Positions 315-51,068 of a DNA stretch of 64,000 nucleotides are shown here, one piece after another. A program made the translations under genes and the position numbers. This DNA comes from Escherichia coli (GTDB taxonomy: Bacteria; Pseudomonadota; Gammaproteobacteria; Enterobacterales; Enterobacteriaceae), in assembly GCF_009931435.1 (NCBI RefSeq), contig NZ_CP043414.1. One strand, written 5' to 3'. A model generated the notes under the pieces. That model was not told the origin of the DNA and searched no databases. It saw only the letters and a program-made list of their open reading frames with translations. Position 1 is the stretch's first letter, and every line of letters begins with the position of its first letter.

Positions 315-1508
315 ATGAACAAAAACAGAGGGTTTACGCCTCTGGCGGTCGTTCTGATGCTCTCAGGCAGCTTAGCCCTAACAGGATGTGACGACAAACA
401 GGCCCAACAAGGTGGCCAGCAGATGCCCGCCGTTGGCGTAGTTACAGTCAAAACTGAACCTCTGCAGATCACAACCGAGCTTCCGGGTCGCACCAGTGCC
501 TACCGGATCGCAGAAGTTCGTCCTCAAGTTAGCGGGATTATCCTGAAGCGTAATTTCAAAGAAGGTAGCGACATCGAAGCAGGTGTCTCTCTCTATCAGA
601 TTGATCCTGCGACCTATCAGGCGACATACGACAGTGCGAAAGGCGATTTAGCGAAAGCCCAGGCTGCAGCCAATATCGCGCAATTGACGGTGAATCGTTA
701 TCAGAAACTGCTGGGTACGCAGTACATCAGTAAGCAAGAGTACGATCAGGCTCTGGCTGATGCGCAACAGGCGAATGCCGCGGTAACTGCGGCGAAAGCT
801 GCCGTTGAAACTGCGCGTATCAATCTGGCTTACACCAAAGTCACCTCTCCAATTAGCGGCCGCATTGGTAAGTCAAACGTGACGGAAGGTGCCCTGGTGC
901 AAAACGGTCAGGCGACTGCGCTGGCAACCGTGCAGCAACTTGATCCGATCTACGTTGATGTGACTCAGTCCAGCAACGACTTCCTGCGCCTGAAACAGGA
1001 ACTGGCAAATGGCACGCTGAAACAAGAGAACGGCAAAGCCAAAGTGTCGCTGATCACCAGTGACGGCATTAAGTTCCCACAGGACGGTACGCTGGAGTTC
1101 TCTGACGTTACTGTCGATCAGACCACCGGGTCTATCACCCTACGCGCTATCTTCCCGAACCCGGATCACACTCTGCTGCCGGGTATGTTCGTGCGCGCAC
1201 GTCTGGAAGAAGGGCTTAATCCAAACGCCATTTTAGTCCCGCAACAAGGTGTAACCCGTACGCCGCGTGGCGATGCTACCGTACTGGTGGTAGGCGCGGA
1301 TGACAAAGTGGAAACCCGTCCGATCGTTGCAAGCCAGGCTATTGGCGATAAGTGGCTGGTGACAGAAGGTCTGAAAGCAGGCGATCGCGTAGTAATAAGT
1401 GGGCTGCAGAAAGTGCGTCCTGGTGTCCAGGTAAAAGCACAAGAAGTTACCGCTGATAATAACCAGCAAGCCGCAAGCGGTACTCAGCCTGAACAGTCCA
1501 AGTCTTAA
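315..1508 (+). CDS. acrA: Multidrug efflux RND periplasmic adaptor lipoprotein AcrA (397 aa)
   Basis: ORF 279..1508 trimmed to ATG 315 (MNKNRGFTPLAVVLMLSGSLALTGC lipoprotein signal); immediately upstream of acrB. Confidence 0.97.
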   Translation: MNKNRGFTPLAVVLMLSGSLALTGCDDKQAQQGGQQMPAVGVVTVKTEPLQITTELPGRTSAYRIAEVRPQVSGIILKRNFKEGSDIEAGVSLYQIDPATYQATYDSAKGDLAKAQAAANIAQLTVNRYQKLLGTQYISKQEYDQALADAQQANAAVTAAKAAVETARINLAYTKVTSPISGRIGKSNVTEGALVQNGQATALATVQQLDPIYVDVTQSSNDFLRLKQELANGTLKQENGKAKVSLITSDGIKFPQDGTLEFSDVTVDQTTGSITLRAIFPNPDHTLLPGMFVRARLEEGLNPNAILVPQQGVTRTPRGDATVLVVGADDKVETRPIVASQAIGDKWLVTEGLKAGDRVVISGLQKVRPGVQVKAQEVTADNNQQAASGTQPEQSKS

Positions 1509-9373: not shown

Positions 9374-9487
9374 GGGTGGGGGCCCTGCCAGCTACATCCC
9401 GGCACACACGTCATCTGCCTTGGCTGCTTCCTTCCGGACCTGACCTGGTAAACAGAGTAGCGTTGCGGGAGAACCAACAGAGCCCCC
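9374..9487 (-). ncRNA. ffs: 4.5S RNA (signal recognition particle RNA), 114 nt
   Basis: Minus strand reads GGGGGCTCTGTTGGTTCTCCCGCAACGCTACTCTGTTTACCAGGTCAGGTCCGGAAGGAAGCAGCCAAGGCAGATGACGTGTGTGCCGGGATGTAGCTGGCAGGGCCCCCACCC, the recalled E. coli 4.5S RNA sequence; expected between ybaA and atl. Confidence 0.92.
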
Positions 9488-27059: not shown

Positions 27060-27142
27060 AGAGCTCTCTCTTAGTTTAATTTCCGCCAGGTAATCAGATG
27101 ACACGACTGTGCTTCACGCCATCTATTAACATGTACGTCAGT

Positions 27143-27170
27143 ATATGGGGATGTTTCCCCCACATTCAAC
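27143..27170 (-). promoter_or_regulatory. sigma32 heat-shock promoter of lon
   Basis: Minus strand reads TTGAAT-gtgggggaaacat-CCCCATAT, matching the sigma32 -35/-10 consensus (cTTGAAa / CCCCATnT), about 85 nt upstream of the lon ATG. Confidence 0.7.
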
Positions 27171-27189
27171 GCCGAGAATAGAGGAAAAA

Positions 27190-27222
27190 TTAAAGGGGAG
27201 ATAAAATCCCCCCTTTTTGGTT
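27190..27222 (-). terminator. Rho-independent terminator after clpX
   Basis: Minus strand gggggga-ttttatc-tcccc followed by tttaattttt, just downstream of the clpX stop. Confidence 0.6.
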
Positions 27223-27246
27223 AACTAATTGTGTGGAAATGGTTAA

Positions 27247-46885: not shown

Positions 46886-47128
46886 ATGCCGAAGAAAAAT
46901 GAGGCGCCCGCCAGCTTTGAAAAGGCGCTGAGCGAGCTGGAACAGATTGTAACCCGTCTGGAAAGTGGCGACCTGCCGCTGGAAGAGGCGCTGAACGAGT
47001 TCGAACGTGGCGTGCAGCTGGCACGTCAGGGGCAGGCCAAATTACAACAAGCCGAACAGCGCGTACAAATTCTGCTGTCTGACAATGAAGACGCCTCTTT
47101 AACTCCTTTTACACCGGACAATGAGTAA
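46886..47128 (+). CDS. xseB: Exodeoxyribonuclease VII small subunit XseB (80 aa)
   Basis: [67 protein letters not shown]... Confidence 0.97.
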
Positions 47129-48027
47129 TGGACTTTCCGCAGCAACTCGAAGCCTGCGTTAAGCAGGCCAACCAGGCGCTGAGCCGTTTTATTGCCCCAC
47201 TGCCCTTTCAGAACACTCCCGTGGTCGAAACCATGCAGTATGGCGCATTATTAGGTGGTAAGCGCCTGCGACCGTTCCTGGTTTATGCCACCGGCCATAT
47301 GTTCGGCGTTAGCACAAACACGCTGGACGCACCCGCTGCCGCCGTGGAGTGTATCCACGCGTATTCATTAATTCATGATGATTTACCGGCAATGGATGAT
47401 GACGATCTGCGTCGCGGTTTGCCGACCTGCCATGTGAAGTTTGGCGAAGCAAACGCGATTCTCGCTGGCGACGCTTTACAAACGCTGGCGTTCTCGATTT
47501 TAAGTGATGCCGATATGCCGGAAGTGTCGGATCGCGACAGAATTTCGATGATTTCTGAACTGGCGAGCGCCAGCGGTATTGGCGGAATGTGCGGTGGTCA
47601 GGCATTAGATTTAGATGCGGAAGGCAAACACGTACCTCTGGACGCACTCGAGCGTATTCATCGCCATAAAACCGGCGCATTAATTCGCGCCGCCGTTCGT
47701 CTTGGTGCATTAAGCGCCGGAGATAAAGGACGTCGTGCTCTGCCAATTCTCGACAAGTACGCAGAGAGCATCGGCCTTGCCTTCCAGGTTCAGGATGACA
47801 TCCTGGATGTGGTGGGAGATACTGCAACGTTGGGTAAACGCCAGGGTGCCGACCAGCAACTTGGTAAAAGTACCTACCCTGCACTTCTGGGTCTTGAGCA
47901 AGCCCGGAAGAAAGCCCAGGATCTGATCGACGATGCCCGCCAGTCGCTAAAACAACTGGCTGAACAGTCACTCGATACCTCGGCACTGGAAGCGCTAGCG
48001 GACTACATCATCCAGCGTAATAAATAA
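47128..48027 (+). CDS. ispA: Farnesyl diphosphate synthase IspA (299 aa)
   Basis: [34 protein letters not shown]... with the two aspartate-rich motifs (LIHDDLPAMDDDDLRRG; FQVQDDILD); TAATG overlap with xseB. Confidence 0.97.
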   Translation: MDFPQQLEACVKQANQALSRFIAPLPFQNTPVVETMQYGALLGGKRLRPFLVYATGHMFGVSTNTLDAPAAAVECIHAYSLIHDDLPAMDDDDLRRGLPTCHVKFGEANAILAGDALQTLAFSILSDADMPEVSDRDRISMISELASASGIGGMCGGQALDLDAEGKHVPLDALERIHRHKTGALIRAAVRLGALSAGDKGRRALPILDKYAESIGLAFQVQDDILDVVGDTATLGKRQGADQQLGKSTYPALLGLEQARKKAQDLIDDARQSLKQLAEQSLDTSALEALADYIIQRNK

Positions 48028-48051
48028 ACAATAAGTATTAATAGGCCCCTG

Positions 48052-49914
48052 ATGAGTTTTGATATTGCCAAATACCCGACCCTGGCACTGGTCGACTCCA
48101 CCCAGGAGTTACGACTGTTGCCAAAAGAGAGTTTACCGAAACTCTGCGACGAACTGCGCCGCTATTTACTCGACAGCGTGAGCCGTTCCAGCGGGCACTT
48201 CGCCTCCGGGCTGGGCACGGTCGAGCTGACCGTAGCGCTGCACTACGTCTATAACACCCCGTTTGACCAATTGATTTGGGATGTGGGGCATCAGGCTTAT
48301 CCGCATAAAATTTTGACCGGACGCCGCGACAAAATAGGCACCATCCGTCAAAAAGGCGGCCTGCACCCGTTCCCGTGGCGCGGCGAAAGTGAATATGACG
48401 TGTTAAGCGTCGGGCATTCATCAACCTCTATCAGTGCCGGAATTGGTATTGCGGTTGCTGCCGAGAAAGAAGGCAAAAATCGCCGCACCGTCTGTGTTAT
48501 AGGCGATGGCGCGATTACTGCTGGCATGGCGTTTGAAGCGATGAATCACGCGGGCGACATCCGCCCGGACATGCTGGTTATTCTCAACGACAACGAAATG
48601 TCGATTTCCGAAAATGTTGGCGCGCTCAACAACCATCTGGCGCAGCTGCTTTCCGGCAAGCTTTACTCTTCACTGCGCGAGGGCGGGAAAAAAGTATTCT
48701 CCGGCGTTCCGCCCATTAAAGAGCTGCTCAAACGTACCGAAGAACATATTAAAGGCATGGTAGTACCAGGCACGCTGTTTGAAGAGCTGGGCTTTAACTA
48801 CATCGGCCCGGTTGACGGTCACGATGTGCTGGGGCTTATCACCACGCTTAAGAACATGCGCGACCTGAAAGGCCCGCAGTTCCTGCATATCATGACCAAA
48901 AAAGGTCGTGGTTACGAACCGGCAGAAAAAGATCCAATCACCTTCCACGCCGTGCCTAAATTTGACCCCTCCAGCGGTTGCCTGCCGAAAAGCAGCGGCG
49001 GCCTGCCAAGCTATTCAAAAATTTTTGGCGACTGGTTGTGCGAAACCGCAGCAAAAGACAACAAGCTGATGGCGATTACCCCGGCGATGCGCGAAGGTTC
49101 AGGCATGGTCGAGTTTTCACGTAAATTCCCGGATCGCTACTTCGACGTGGCAATCGCCGAGCAACACGCAGTGACCTTTGCTGCGGGTCTGGCGATTGGT
49201 GGCTACAAACCGATCGTGGCAATTTATTCCACTTTCCTGCAACGTGCCTATGATCAGGTGCTGCATGACGTGGCGATTCAAAAGCTCCCGGTCCTGTTCG
49301 CCATCGACCGCGCGGGCATTGTTGGTGCTGACGGTCAAACCCACCAGGGCGCTTTTGATCTCTCATACCTGCGCTGCATTCCGGAAATGGTCATTATGAC
49401 CCCGAGCGATGAAAACGAATGTCGCCAGATGCTCTATACCGGCTATCACTATAACGATGGCCCGTCAGCGGTGCGCTATCCGCGCGGCAACGCCGTTGGC
49501 GTTGAACTGACGCCACTGGAAAAACTGCCAATTGGCAAAGGCATTGTGAAGCGTCGTGGCGAGAAACTGGCGATCCTCAACTTTGGTACGCTGATGCCGG
49601 AAGCAGCGAAAGTCGCAGAATCGCTGAACGCTACGCTGGTCGATATGCGTTTTGTGAAGCCGCTTGATGAAGCGTTAATTCTGGAAATGGCCGCCAGCCA
49701 CGAGGCGCTGATCACCATTGAAGAAAACGCCATTATGGGCGGCGCAGGCAGCGGCGTGAACGAAGTGCTGATGGCCCATCGTAAACCAGTACCCGTGCTG
49801 AATATTGGCCTGCCGGACTTCTTTATTCCACAAGGAACGCAGGAAGAAATGCGCGCTGAACTCGGCCTCGATGCCGCCGGTATGGAAGCCAAAATCAAAA
49901 CCTGGCTGGCATAA
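48052..49914 (+). CDS. dxs: 1-deoxy-D-xylulose-5-phosphate synthase Dxs (620 aa)
   Basis: [58 protein letters not shown]... Confidence 0.98.
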
Positions 49915-49921
49915 TCCCTAC

Positions 49922-50078
49922 TCCACTCCTGCTATGCTTAAGAAATTATTCATAGACTCTAAATAATTCGAGTTGCAGGAAGGCGGCAAACGAGTGAAGC
50001 CCCAGGAGCTTACATAAGTAAGTGACTGGGGTGAACGAATGCAGCCGCAGCACATGCAACTTGAAGTATGACGAGTAT
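49922..50078. repeat. ERIC / IRU element between dxs and yajO
   Basis: Contains gtgaagccccaggagcttacat-aagtaagtgactggggtgaacg, matching the ERIC1R and ERIC2 consensus cores; boundaries approximate. Confidence 0.6.
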
Positions 50079-50093
50079 GGCAGGAGTGGCAGC

Positions 50094-51068
50094 ATGCAAT
50101 ACAACCCCTTAGGAAAAACCGACCTTCGCATTTCCCGACTTTGCCTCGGCTGTATGACCTTTGGTGAGCCGGATCGCGGTAATCACGCATGGACACTGCC
50201 CGAAGAGAGCAGCCGTCCCATCATTAAACGCGCGCTGGAAGGCGGCATAAATTTCTTTGATACCGCCAATAGTTATTCTGACGGCAGCAGCGAAGAGATC
50301 GTCGGTCGTGCACTGCGGGACTTTGCCCGTCGTGAAGACGTGGTCGTTGCAACTAAAGTGTTCCATCACGTTGGTGATTTGCCGGAAGGATTATCCCGTG
50401 CGCAAATTTTGCGCTCTATTGACGACAGCTTGCGACGTCTCGGCATGGATTATGTCGATATCCTGCAAATTCATCGCTGGGATTACAACACGCCGATCGA
50501 AGACACGCTGGAAGCCCTGAACGATGTGGTAAAATCCGGGAAAGCGCGTTATATCGGCGCGTCATCCATGCACGCCTCGCAGTTTGCTCAGGCGCTGGAA
50601 CTGCAAAAACAGCACGGCTGGGCGCAGTTTGTCAGTATGCAGGATCACTACAATCTGATTTATCGCGAAGAAGAACGAGAGATGCTGCCGCTGTGTTATC
50701 AGGAAGGCGTGGCGGTGATTCCGTGGAGTCCGCTGGCGCGGGGACGTCTGACGCGTCCGTGGGGAGAAACCACCGCGCGGCTGGTGTCGGATGAAGTGGG
50801 GAAAAATCTCTACCAAGAAAGCGATGAAAATGACGCGCAGATCGCAGAACGGTTAACAGGCGTCAGTGAAGAACTGGGGGCAACGCGAGCACAAGTCGCG
50901 CTGGCATGGTTGTTGAGCAAACCTGGCATTGCCGCACCAATTATCGGTACATCGCGGGAAGAACAACTTGATGAATTGCTGAACGCGGTGGATATCACCT
51001 TGAAGCCGGAACAGATTGCTGAACTGGAAACGCCGTATAAACCGCATCCGGTCGTAGGATTTAAATAG
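50094..51068 (+). CDS. yajO: Aldo-keto reductase family oxidoreductase YajO (324 aa)
   Basis: ORF 50022..51068 trimmed to ATG 50094 (MQYNPLGKTDLRISRLCLGCMTFGEPDRGNHAWTLPEE...). Confidence 0.93.
   Translation: MQYNPLGKTDLRISRLCLGCMTFGEPDRGNHAWTLPEESSRPIIKRALEGGINFFDTANSYSDGSSEEIVGRALRDFARREDVVVATKVFHHVGDLPEGLSRAQILRSIDDSLRRLGMDYVDILQIHRWDYNTPIEDTLEALNDVVKSGKARYIGASSMHASQFAQALELQKQHGWAQFVSMQDHYNLIYREEEREMLPLCYQEGVAVIPWSPLARGRLTRPWGETTARLVSDEVGKNLYQESDENDAQIAERLTGVSEELGATRAQVALAWLLSKPGIAAPIIGTSREEQLDELLNAVDITLKPEQIAELETPYKPHPVVGFK

Follow-up and report, generated by a model that had tools for sequence, protein, structure and literature searches.

The spacer between dxs and yajO in this Escherichia coli genome contains a genuine, ordinary full-length ERIC copy, which lies in the apical loop of a conserved dxs-yajO hairpin that is older than the insertion. 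We examined the locus in a stretch of 64,000 nucleotides of contig NZ_CP043414.1, referred to as the window, and positions are counted from its first letter (Table 1). ERIC in the loop of an older hairpin, a yajO promoter within the hairpin arm, insulation of yajO from upstream transcription, near-neutrality of the insertion and an antisense promoter at the K-12 junction form a combined picture that we hold to be probably correct. A more specific version is favoured with clearly less assurance, and we lean towards it only somewhat: a promoter-in-hairpin insulator on which ERIC landed independently at least twice (in Escherichia and in Phytobacter/Kosakonia), with a junction-made antisense promoter in K-12 that is weakened by an A-to-G change.

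Knowledge of the ERIC family dates from 1990-91, and K-12 shares this copy, with one flanking base different. To this we add revised boundaries, a conserved architecture with a promoter in a hairpin, three junction states and a plausible connection of a published antisense RNA with the ERIC junction. According to the folding predictions, the locus would be an example of a MITE that does no harm although it lies 2 nt from a ribosome-binding site, by folding on itself in the loop of a regulatory hairpin that was already there. The locus also suggests that an insertion junction can make an antisense promoter against the essential isoprenoid gene dxs and the back-up enzyme gene yajO. Three published K-12 observations, namely an antisense RNA with its dsRNA cluster, a sigma-S ChIP peak and an RNA 3' end at the yajO ATG, may be reinterpreted simply from this arrangement. 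They had no earlier connection to ERIC.

Table 1. Features of the dxs-yajO locus in the window
Feature	Position	Strand	Details
xseB, ispA, dxs, yajO gene run	46886-51068	+	ORFs; same annotation in matching E. coli records
dxs ORF, 620 aa	48052-49914	+	stop TAA 49912-49914; annotated dxs in matching records
K-12 antisense RNA, ~212 nt	49856-50067	-	inferred from published 5' and 3' ends
Native hairpin 5' arm	49923-49938	+	anti-SD CCACTCCTGC 49923-49932, then TATGCT; complementary to 50074-50089
yajO promoter -10 region GCTATGCTTAA	49931-49941	+	hexamer TATGCT 49933-49938, TG 49930-49931
yajO transcription start (A)	49945	+	K-12 TSS transferred; 7 nt past hexamer
Full-length ERIC/IRU element, 127 bp	49953-50079	+	125-bp indel, ybhJ-ybhI identity, RF02818 alignment, fold
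ERIC flanking dinucleotides	49953-49954, 50078-50079		TA (left), TG (right); right one TA in K-12
ERIC left terminal inverted-repeat arm	49956-49977	+	22 nt, 77% complementary to 50055-50076
ERIC central core (ERIC1R/ERIC2 primer region)	49994-50037	+	42/44, unique in window
ERIC right terminal inverted-repeat arm	50055-50076	+	partner of 49956-49977
Antisense transcription start, K-12-mapped	50067	-	Cappable-seq, transferred
Antisense -10 region at ERIC right junction	50074-50084	-	window TGCCATACT, K-12 TGCTATACT
Outer hairpin 3' arm	50074-50089	+	last ERIC bases, then GCAGGAGTGG, yajO SD within
yajO Shine-Dalgarno AGGAG	50082-50086	+	inside outer-hairpin 3' arm
yajO coding sequence, 324 aa	50094-51068	+	ATG at 50094; annotated yajO in matching records

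The ERIC copy and its boundaries

The xseB, ispA, dxs and yajO genes are given as a single operon in a published operon listing, and the dxs-yajO spacer is 179 nt long. The sequence at 49994-50037 of the plus strand is identical at 42 of 44 positions, with two mismatches, to a 44-mer that concatenates the complement of ERIC1R with ERIC2. Both primer sequences were confirmed from the literature, where they occur together in 246 papers. This core is the sole match in the 64-kb window, and there was no match in 100 dinucleotide-preserving shuffles. A sequence-only reading of the region had claimed the primer-core match and an ERIC/IRU identity. The match is the one described here, and the identity is established by a full-length alignment, a collinear copy of 127 bp elsewhere in the genome and a clean indel of 125 bp. 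Alignment thus recovered the element at full length, 49953-50079, and not merely its primer-like core.

Filled alleles (the window, strain 2017-02-2CC and K-12) and empty alleles (O157:H7 and SF-468) differ by a single clean indel of exactly 125 bp, which can be placed from 49952-50076 to 49956-50080, with zero mismatches for the placements up to 49954-50078. The ERIC copy corresponds to this indel plus a 2-bp duplication. Its termini are TA...TA in K-12 and E. albertii and TA...TG in the window, the TA rule being taken from the literature. The empty E. coli sites read CATGG, and an AT duplication fits them equally well as a TA duplication. The copy starts 39 nt past the dxs stop. Its right end falls at 50077-50079, the yajO Shine-Dalgarno sequence begins at 50082 and the ATG at 50094, as expected from the earlier statement that ERIC adjoins the yajO ribosome-binding site. 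The interval first proposed for the repeat, 49922-50078, is ERIC in its right part, but its left edge lies about 31 nt too far out, in native spacer that belongs to the 5' arm of a separate hairpin.

In the empty-site genomes, the best other ERIC copy lies between ybhJ and ybhI. It shows 92-94.5% identity over 127 bp and is collinear with the yajO-leader copy from end to end. Another copy is found between yeiS and preT. With the 129-nt element as a probe, an E. coli genome has a median of 10 ERIC-type places (range 2-21). The copy shares the 127-bp length, the core, the terminal repeats and the TA ends with the published ERIC/IRU/RU-1 family (Sharples & Lloyd 1990; Hulton et al. 1991; Wilson & Sharp 2006), as well as the long RNA stem-loop, the multi-copy, intergenic and transcribed character and the strain-variable presence. 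Nothing essential is different, apart from the right flank of the window allele, which is TG where the family has TA. Our literature search found nothing linking yajO with ERIC. A "long" ERIC form with a 78-nt internal insert occupies the same site in some strains and in E. albertii.

Rfam, as searched, was without an ERIC family of its own. The covariance model RF02818 (V_AS5, Vibrio antisense RNA AS5) aligned with positions 1-129 of its 129 at 49952-50075, with 52.5 bits and E = 4e-11. This score is below the gathering score of 96, and the copy is not a member by the Rfam rule. The long-hairpin architecture and the end-to-end alignment are shared, and V_AS5 probably represents the Vibrio branch of this repeat family and not an identical RNA gene.

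The ERIC copy alone folds as RNA to -56 kcal/mol (z = -8.3). The 186-nt region 49915-50100 forms a single long rod at -80.1 kcal/mol (z = -7.9), and the opposite strand of the same region reaches -65.4 kcal/mol (z = -4.3). Within ERIC, a central inverted pair is formed by 50000-50013 and 50018-50031. The longer imperfect palindrome that had been proposed is therefore real. It is made of this pair, the terminal arms 49956-49977/50055-50076 and the outer arms 49923-49938/50074-50089.

Presence of the copy varies among strains. A 581-nt probe across the spacer found a match in 5,425 of 5,426 complete E. coli genomes, and a genome was counted as filled when one place covered at least 80% of the probe. 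By this measure 2,843 of the 5,426 genomes are filled. Another 2,582 have a probe match and are unfilled, and in those sampled from this remainder the match is 451 bp compared with 576 bp, so that the comparison across strains suggested by the sequence-only reading returned the same 125-bp difference. Exact junction probes gave 1,158 genomes with the window-type junction ...GAGTATGGCAGG (G), 1,284 with the K-12-type junction ...GAGTATAGCAGG (A) and 2,486 with the empty junction, each out of 5,426. Since about half of the strains are without ERIC and the rest have two junction alleles, natural isogenic-like comparisons are available.

The native hairpin and the promoter in its arm

Located 8 nt past the dxs stop, the sequence CCACTCCTGC is exactly complementary to GCAGGAGTGG. 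The 5' arm is also present in ERIC-free alleles, whose spacer reads TAATCCCTACTCCACTCCTGCTATGCTTAAGAAATTATTCATGGCAGGAGTGGCAGCATG and folds to -28.1 kcal/mol (z = -6.2). The stem that pairs with the ribosome-binding site is older than ERIC because the empty allele already forms it. The pairing of the ribosome-binding site thus comes from a pre-existing conserved hairpin and not from ERIC, a point that the sequence-only reading had missed.

We compared the yajO loci of a further 80 species of Enterobacteriaceae, including Citrobacter, Enterobacter, Klebsiella, Kosakonia and Raoultella. The dxs gene is directly upstream of yajO in all 80. The spacer measures 54-75 nt in 75 of them, and all 75 of these spacers fold to the same hairpin, in which the anti-Shine-Dalgarno sequence CTCCTGC of the 5' arm is paired with the yajO ribosome-binding site. 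The eight core pairs of this stem are invariant or nearly so, and hence uninformative for covariation. Three basal pairs vary yet stay paired in a gapless two-arm alignment. One of them is GC in 27 sequences, GU in 26, AU in 8, UA in 2 and other in 3; another is CG in 43, UA in 9, UG in 7 and other in 7. The covariation score was higher than in each of 500 shuffles and in every slid control, with the arms cut by motif anchors and in this respect biased towards structure. Phytobacter and Kosakonia have independent ERIC-like insertions in the same hairpin loop.

Part of the arm is conserved beyond what pairing would need. The 14-mer CTCCTGCTATGCTT is essentially invariant across the 80 species, and the following AA is retained in 74-76 of them. 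The bases opposite TATGCTTAA vary between species, so its conservation is not explained by pairing. The invariant TGCTATGCTTAA in the 5' arm fits the sigma-S -10 consensus. The published form of this consensus is KCTAYRCTTAA (PMC5650638), and GCTATGCTTAA agrees with it at 11 of 11 positions; the agreement is exact in 69 of the 80 species. Because a TG stands ahead of the hexamer, the element is an extended -10. Two other explanations of conserved or promoter-like sequence here were rejected. The TGCTATGCTTAA motif as the end of a small ORF or of a dxs read-through extension is excluded, as its frame relative to the stop differs among species. A CATAAT over the dxs stop as a conserved yajO -10 is excluded as well, being present in a minority of species.

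In K-12, SMRT-Cappable-seq (PMC6131387, Supplementary Data 2) reported a yajO-only transcript (b0419) that begins at reverse-strand position 438284 of NC_000913.3. With K-12 yajO at 437161-438135 in NC_000913.3, this start equals window position 49945. The start context, TGCTATGCT-TAAGAA-[A], is the same in K-12 and in the window. A published study (PMC4447067) counts yajO among the sigma-S-regulated genes, with reference to Weber 2005, and assigns an E-sigma-S ChIP peak in K-12 to it. This peak converts to 49984-50124 of the window, and the sense -10 hexamer at 49933-49938 is outside it. The ERIC copy is located between the yajO start and the ATG and within the listed operon, in line with the earlier view that it is transcribed, on K-12 data transferred by sequence.

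Two side observations concern the start site. The A at 49945 had been predicted from the -10 element before the comparison with the published K-12 start. Adams et al. cloned what they called the "entire 5' UTR" from window position 49922, which implies a start upstream of the anti-Shine-Dalgarno arm. The CATAAT over the dxs stop might explain that start.

Access to the yajO ribosome-binding site

The arrangement of promoter and arm suggests how yajO may be insulated from dxs. In the proposed mechanism, CCACUCCUGC (49923-49932) just past the dxs stop would pair with the yajO ribosome-binding site GCAGGAGUGG (50080-50089), and the same 5' arm would double as the carrier of the sigma-S-type -10 TGCTATGCTTAA of yajO. 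The yajO transcript is without the anti-Shine-Dalgarno arm because its start at 49945 falls inside the hairpin. Read-through RNA from dxs has both arms, and therefore its yajO ribosome-binding site would be buried. Such RNA would give no YajO translation and would be terminated by Rho, ending at the hairpin base. We infer from these predictions a translational insulation of yajO from dxs read-through RNA.

Thermodynamic predictions were compared for transcripts with and without the 5' arm. With the arm, the Shine-Dalgarno sequence has a predicted unpaired probability of 0.000 in every case. The predicted opening cost for read-through from dxs is 19.5 kcal/mol in the filled allele and 26.5 kcal/mol in the empty one, and for a start at 49922 it is 17.6 kcal/mol (filled) and 25.1 kcal/mol (empty). 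In the own transcript from 49945, where the arm is absent, the unpaired probability is 0.34 at a cost of 5.1 kcal/mol (filled) and 0.70 at a cost of 5.5 kcal/mol (empty). The idea that ERIC strengthens the sequestration of the ribosome-binding site was rejected, as ERIC lowers the predicted opening cost (19.5 versus 26.5 kcal/mol).

With ERIC, the terminal hairpin of dxs read-through RNA becomes a rod of about 70 bp, and the yajO leader measures 149 nt compared with 24 nt in the empty allele, ERIC spanning +9 to +135. Since ERIC folds on itself, it would rejoin the two native arms, and the insulation would thereby be kept. ERIC is predicted to lengthen the yajO leader yet leave the access to the ribosome-binding site nearly unchanged, which agrees with the roughly even split of filled and empty alleles among genomes. 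On this modelling, ERIC appears to be a tolerated, roughly neutral insertion at this site.

Published transcript ends, all from K-12 and hence from the A allele, are consistent with the insulation. The K-12 xseB-ispA-dxs transcripts are marked "ShorterEnd", that is, they stop before yajO (PMC6131387). Term-seq found a very abundant 3' end at 438135(-), with a score of 38352, which responds to Rho inhibition (PMC7815308). This end is the A of the yajO ATG, window position 50094, 5 nt past the stem. A fusion beginning with TCCACTCCTGC (window 49922, arm included) was more than 2-fold higher in rhoR66S (PMC7815308).

The same ends could be taken to mean that the palindrome is an intrinsic terminator of the xseB-ispA-dxs operon. 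A very stable stem-loop does lie right past dxs, dxs transcripts end before yajO and the strong 3' end is 5 nt past the stem. However, the stem is followed by CAGCAUGCAAUAC (CAGCAUGC) without a U-run, a terminator scan of the spacer found no site and the 3' end responds when Rho is inhibited. We regard an intrinsic terminator as very improbable.

Translational coupling would explain the arm in the opposite sense. Ribosomes ending at dxs would melt the anti-Shine-Dalgarno arm and open the yajO ribosome-binding site, and ERIC would weaken this by a separation of 125 nt. The position of the arm 8 nt past the stop, with the motif CCTG 13-19 nt past the stop in the other species, means that a terminating ribosome could reach it, and the listing of xseB-ispA-dxs-yajO as one operon fits. 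In the full-length reads, nevertheless, the dxs transcripts stop short of yajO and yajO has a transcript of its own, and the arm-bearing construct is under Rho termination, as expected of untranslated RNA. Coupling also leaves the invariant TATGCTTAA unexplained. It seems to us unlikely, and we prefer the insulation of yajO by a promoter placed inside the hairpin.

The insulating arrangement resembles fold-back inhibition of the IS10/IS50 transposase, for which Davis, Simons and Kleckner in 1985 reportedly described read-through RNA that hides the ribosome-binding site and an own promoter that starts inside the hairpin. Shared features are an arm complementary to the ribosome-binding site upstream of the gene's own start (here 49923-49932 versus 49945) and occlusion of the site in read-through transcripts only, which here is an in silico result. 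The present case differs in that yajO is a chromosomal housekeeping/stress gene after an essential operon and not a transposase gene. It also differs in that the -10 of the yajO promoter is embedded in the inhibitory arm itself.

Antisense transcription at the right ERIC junction

Published K-12 Cappable-seq data place a start at 437386(+) of U00096.2, with a score of 38.7 (PMC4782308). The shift between U00096.2 and NC_000913.3 at the locus is 776 bp (IS1I, 768 bp, plus 8 bp), and therefore this antisense start is window position 50067 on the minus strand. Its context in K-12 is CCTGCTATACT-CGTCAT-[A], with an extended -10, a C at -13 and the start 7 nt past TGCTATACT. The hexamer is assembled from a native TGC, the TA duplication and the terminal TACT of ERIC. 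At the corresponding position of the empty allele there is no comparable hexamer. The K-12 antisense promoter thus likely originated from the TGCTATACT made by the junction. The G at 50079 gives TGCCATACT in the window, and a weaker antisense promoter is therefore expected there. In about 41% of filled alleles, the window included, the antisense -10 reads CATACT where K-12 has TATACT, and this G allele likely weakens the promoter.

Term-seq reported an antisense 3' end at 438373(+) (PMC7815308), which equals window position 49856 and delimits the RNA given in Table 1. The dsRNA cluster S-43, captured with p19 and dependent on RNase III, ranks fourth in abundance among the clusters that overlap coding genes. 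Its authors attributed it to an unannotated antisense RNA and made no mention of ERIC (PMC7373196). We mapped S-43 to 49874-50060 of the window. The K-12 antisense RNA would pair with the 3' end of dxs and with the yajO leader, and the resulting duplexes would be cleaved by RNase III. The E-sigma-S ChIP peak at 49984-50124 is centred near the antisense promoter. The junction promoter could therefore be the source of both S-43 and the E-sigma-S peak attributed to yajO.

These RNA data bear on a different role for the repeat. ERIC may act mainly as a dxs mRNA-stability element, by exposing an RNase E site or as an RNase III substrate, as reported for Yersinia. Reviews report an orientation-dependent destabilisation of upstream transcripts by ERIC via RNase E. 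Here the copy lies 39 nt past the dxs stop, and with it the terminal hairpin reaches -80 kcal/mol. In K-12 the copy is spanned by a dsRNA cluster that is abundant and depends on RNase III, and a strong RNA 3' end is found at the hairpin base. On the other hand, a stable terminal hairpin of 14-16 bp is already present without ERIC in all examined species, and half of the E. coli genomes are without ERIC at this essential-gene operon. The p19 cluster moreover reaches about 40 nt into dxs, past any intramolecular ERIC stem, and a sense/antisense duplex fits better. A stability role is a possible reading that we consider doubtful, although of the alternatives weighed here it deserves the most attention.

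Under another alternative, the locus is an independent gene for a small or antisense RNA, this RNA is the functional product and the ERIC sequence is only a scaffold. The best Rfam match is the antisense RNA family V_AS5, and K-12 data show an antisense start and 3' end, plentiful duplex RNA and an abundant RNA 3' end at 50094, just past the hairpin. The V_AS5 score is nevertheless far under the gathering score, the element is missing from about 48% of E. coli genomes and the substitution of CATACT for TATACT affects a large share of the filled alleles. The same sequence also occurs about 10 times per genome. A dedicated RNA gene is accordingly improbable in our assessment, slightly more so than coupling, and we retain an antisense promoter probably made by insertion of an ordinary repeat.

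The junction promoter can be compared with the Correia/NEMIS elements of Neisseria, which are MITEs that make promoters and RNase III sites. A -10 hexamer supplied by the junction and a transcript region processed by RNase III are common to both. The sequence families are unrelated, and the ERIC-junction promoter points inward and is antisense to the host genes. Another difference is the substrate of RNase III, which at the present locus appears to be a sense/antisense duplex. As a separate matter, Gordon 2017 mentions an RNase III site "5' of yajO", which was set aside as a slip for yajQ; the table of that work has panE-yajQ at 444573.

ERIC-like elements in the dxs-yajO loop

We compared the loop of the yajO hairpin across loci of other genomes. 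Phytobacter ursingii, P. diazotrophicus, and Kosakonia sp. S29 carry a diverged ERIC-like element at the homologous loop position, directly 5' of AGCAGGAG. The same position is empty in P. massiliensis, and only the fused termini of an ERIC-like element remain in the metagenome-assembled genome UBA3516 (TACTCGAAGTAAGACGAGTAATA). These filled, empty, and fused-termini states suggest that the dxs-yajO loop has been targeted repeatedly, with the element decaying afterwards.

A long form of ERIC, with an extra 78 nt placed inside the element after ...GGGGTGAACGA, is found at the dxs-yajO site of E. coli Z1323HEC0462, strain 104, and E. albertii. The ERIC between yeiS and preT shares this insert, and at least 80% of the long-ERIC probe (151 nt) was found in 689 of the 5,426 complete E. 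coli genomes searched. By eye, small hairpins are apparently present in the insert.

Coordinates of the compared loci, ERIC features, and other RNAs of the window (L-handles are loci fetched from other genomes, each with its own coordinates)
Feature	Location	Strand	Remark
Loci compared for the homologous loop	L032:1015-1200, L034:1015-1200, L040:1014-1200, L044:1116-1200, L051:1138-1200		
Long ERIC, dxs-yajO site	L009:601-807, L092:425-681, L011:944-1200		Site is window 49953-50079
Insert-bearing ERIC between yeiS and preT	L093:501-650		
ERIC ends with TACTC terminus and TA duplication	Window 49953-49959 and 50073-50079; L005:598-606 and 720-728		
sraA sRNA	Window 27131-27226	+	Rfam, 106.7 bits, above gathering score
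Small SRP RNA	Window 9383-9479	-	Rfam, 65.8 bits, above gathering score

Promoter-like sequences and yajO start sites

Read inward at each ERIC end, the TA duplication and the ERIC terminus TACTC form TATACT, so that, by sequence, every ERIC with intact TA flanks has a -10-like hexamer at both ends. A further promoter-like site, TTAAGA-18-AATAAT (window 49938-49967; 9/12, a consensus match only), takes its -35 from native sequence and its -10 from within the ERIC left end.

In published E-sigma-S ChIP-seq data, the peak assigned to the yajO promoter spans window 49984-50124. The mapped yajO -10 and start (49933-49945) lie outside this peak, whose centre is close to the antisense transcription start of the ERIC junction. 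The yajO 'entire 5' UTR' construct of Adams et al. (2021) starts at TCCACTCC, window 49922, which is 23 nt upstream of the SMRT-Cappable-seq yajO start. For a start at 49922, a suitable -10 would be CATAAT at 49910-49915, which spans the dxs stop.

Upstream reading frame and naming of yajO

The yajO frame is open upstream as far as a GTG at 50022, within ERIC (window 50022-50093). The ORF listed from this GTG, a hypothetical start, has 348 aa.

In their discussion, Gordon et al. (2017; PMC5371410) place hairpins '5' of yajO'; the data in that paper are for yajQ (panE-yajQ, position 444573). The phrase is a slip for yajQ and could mislead text searches.
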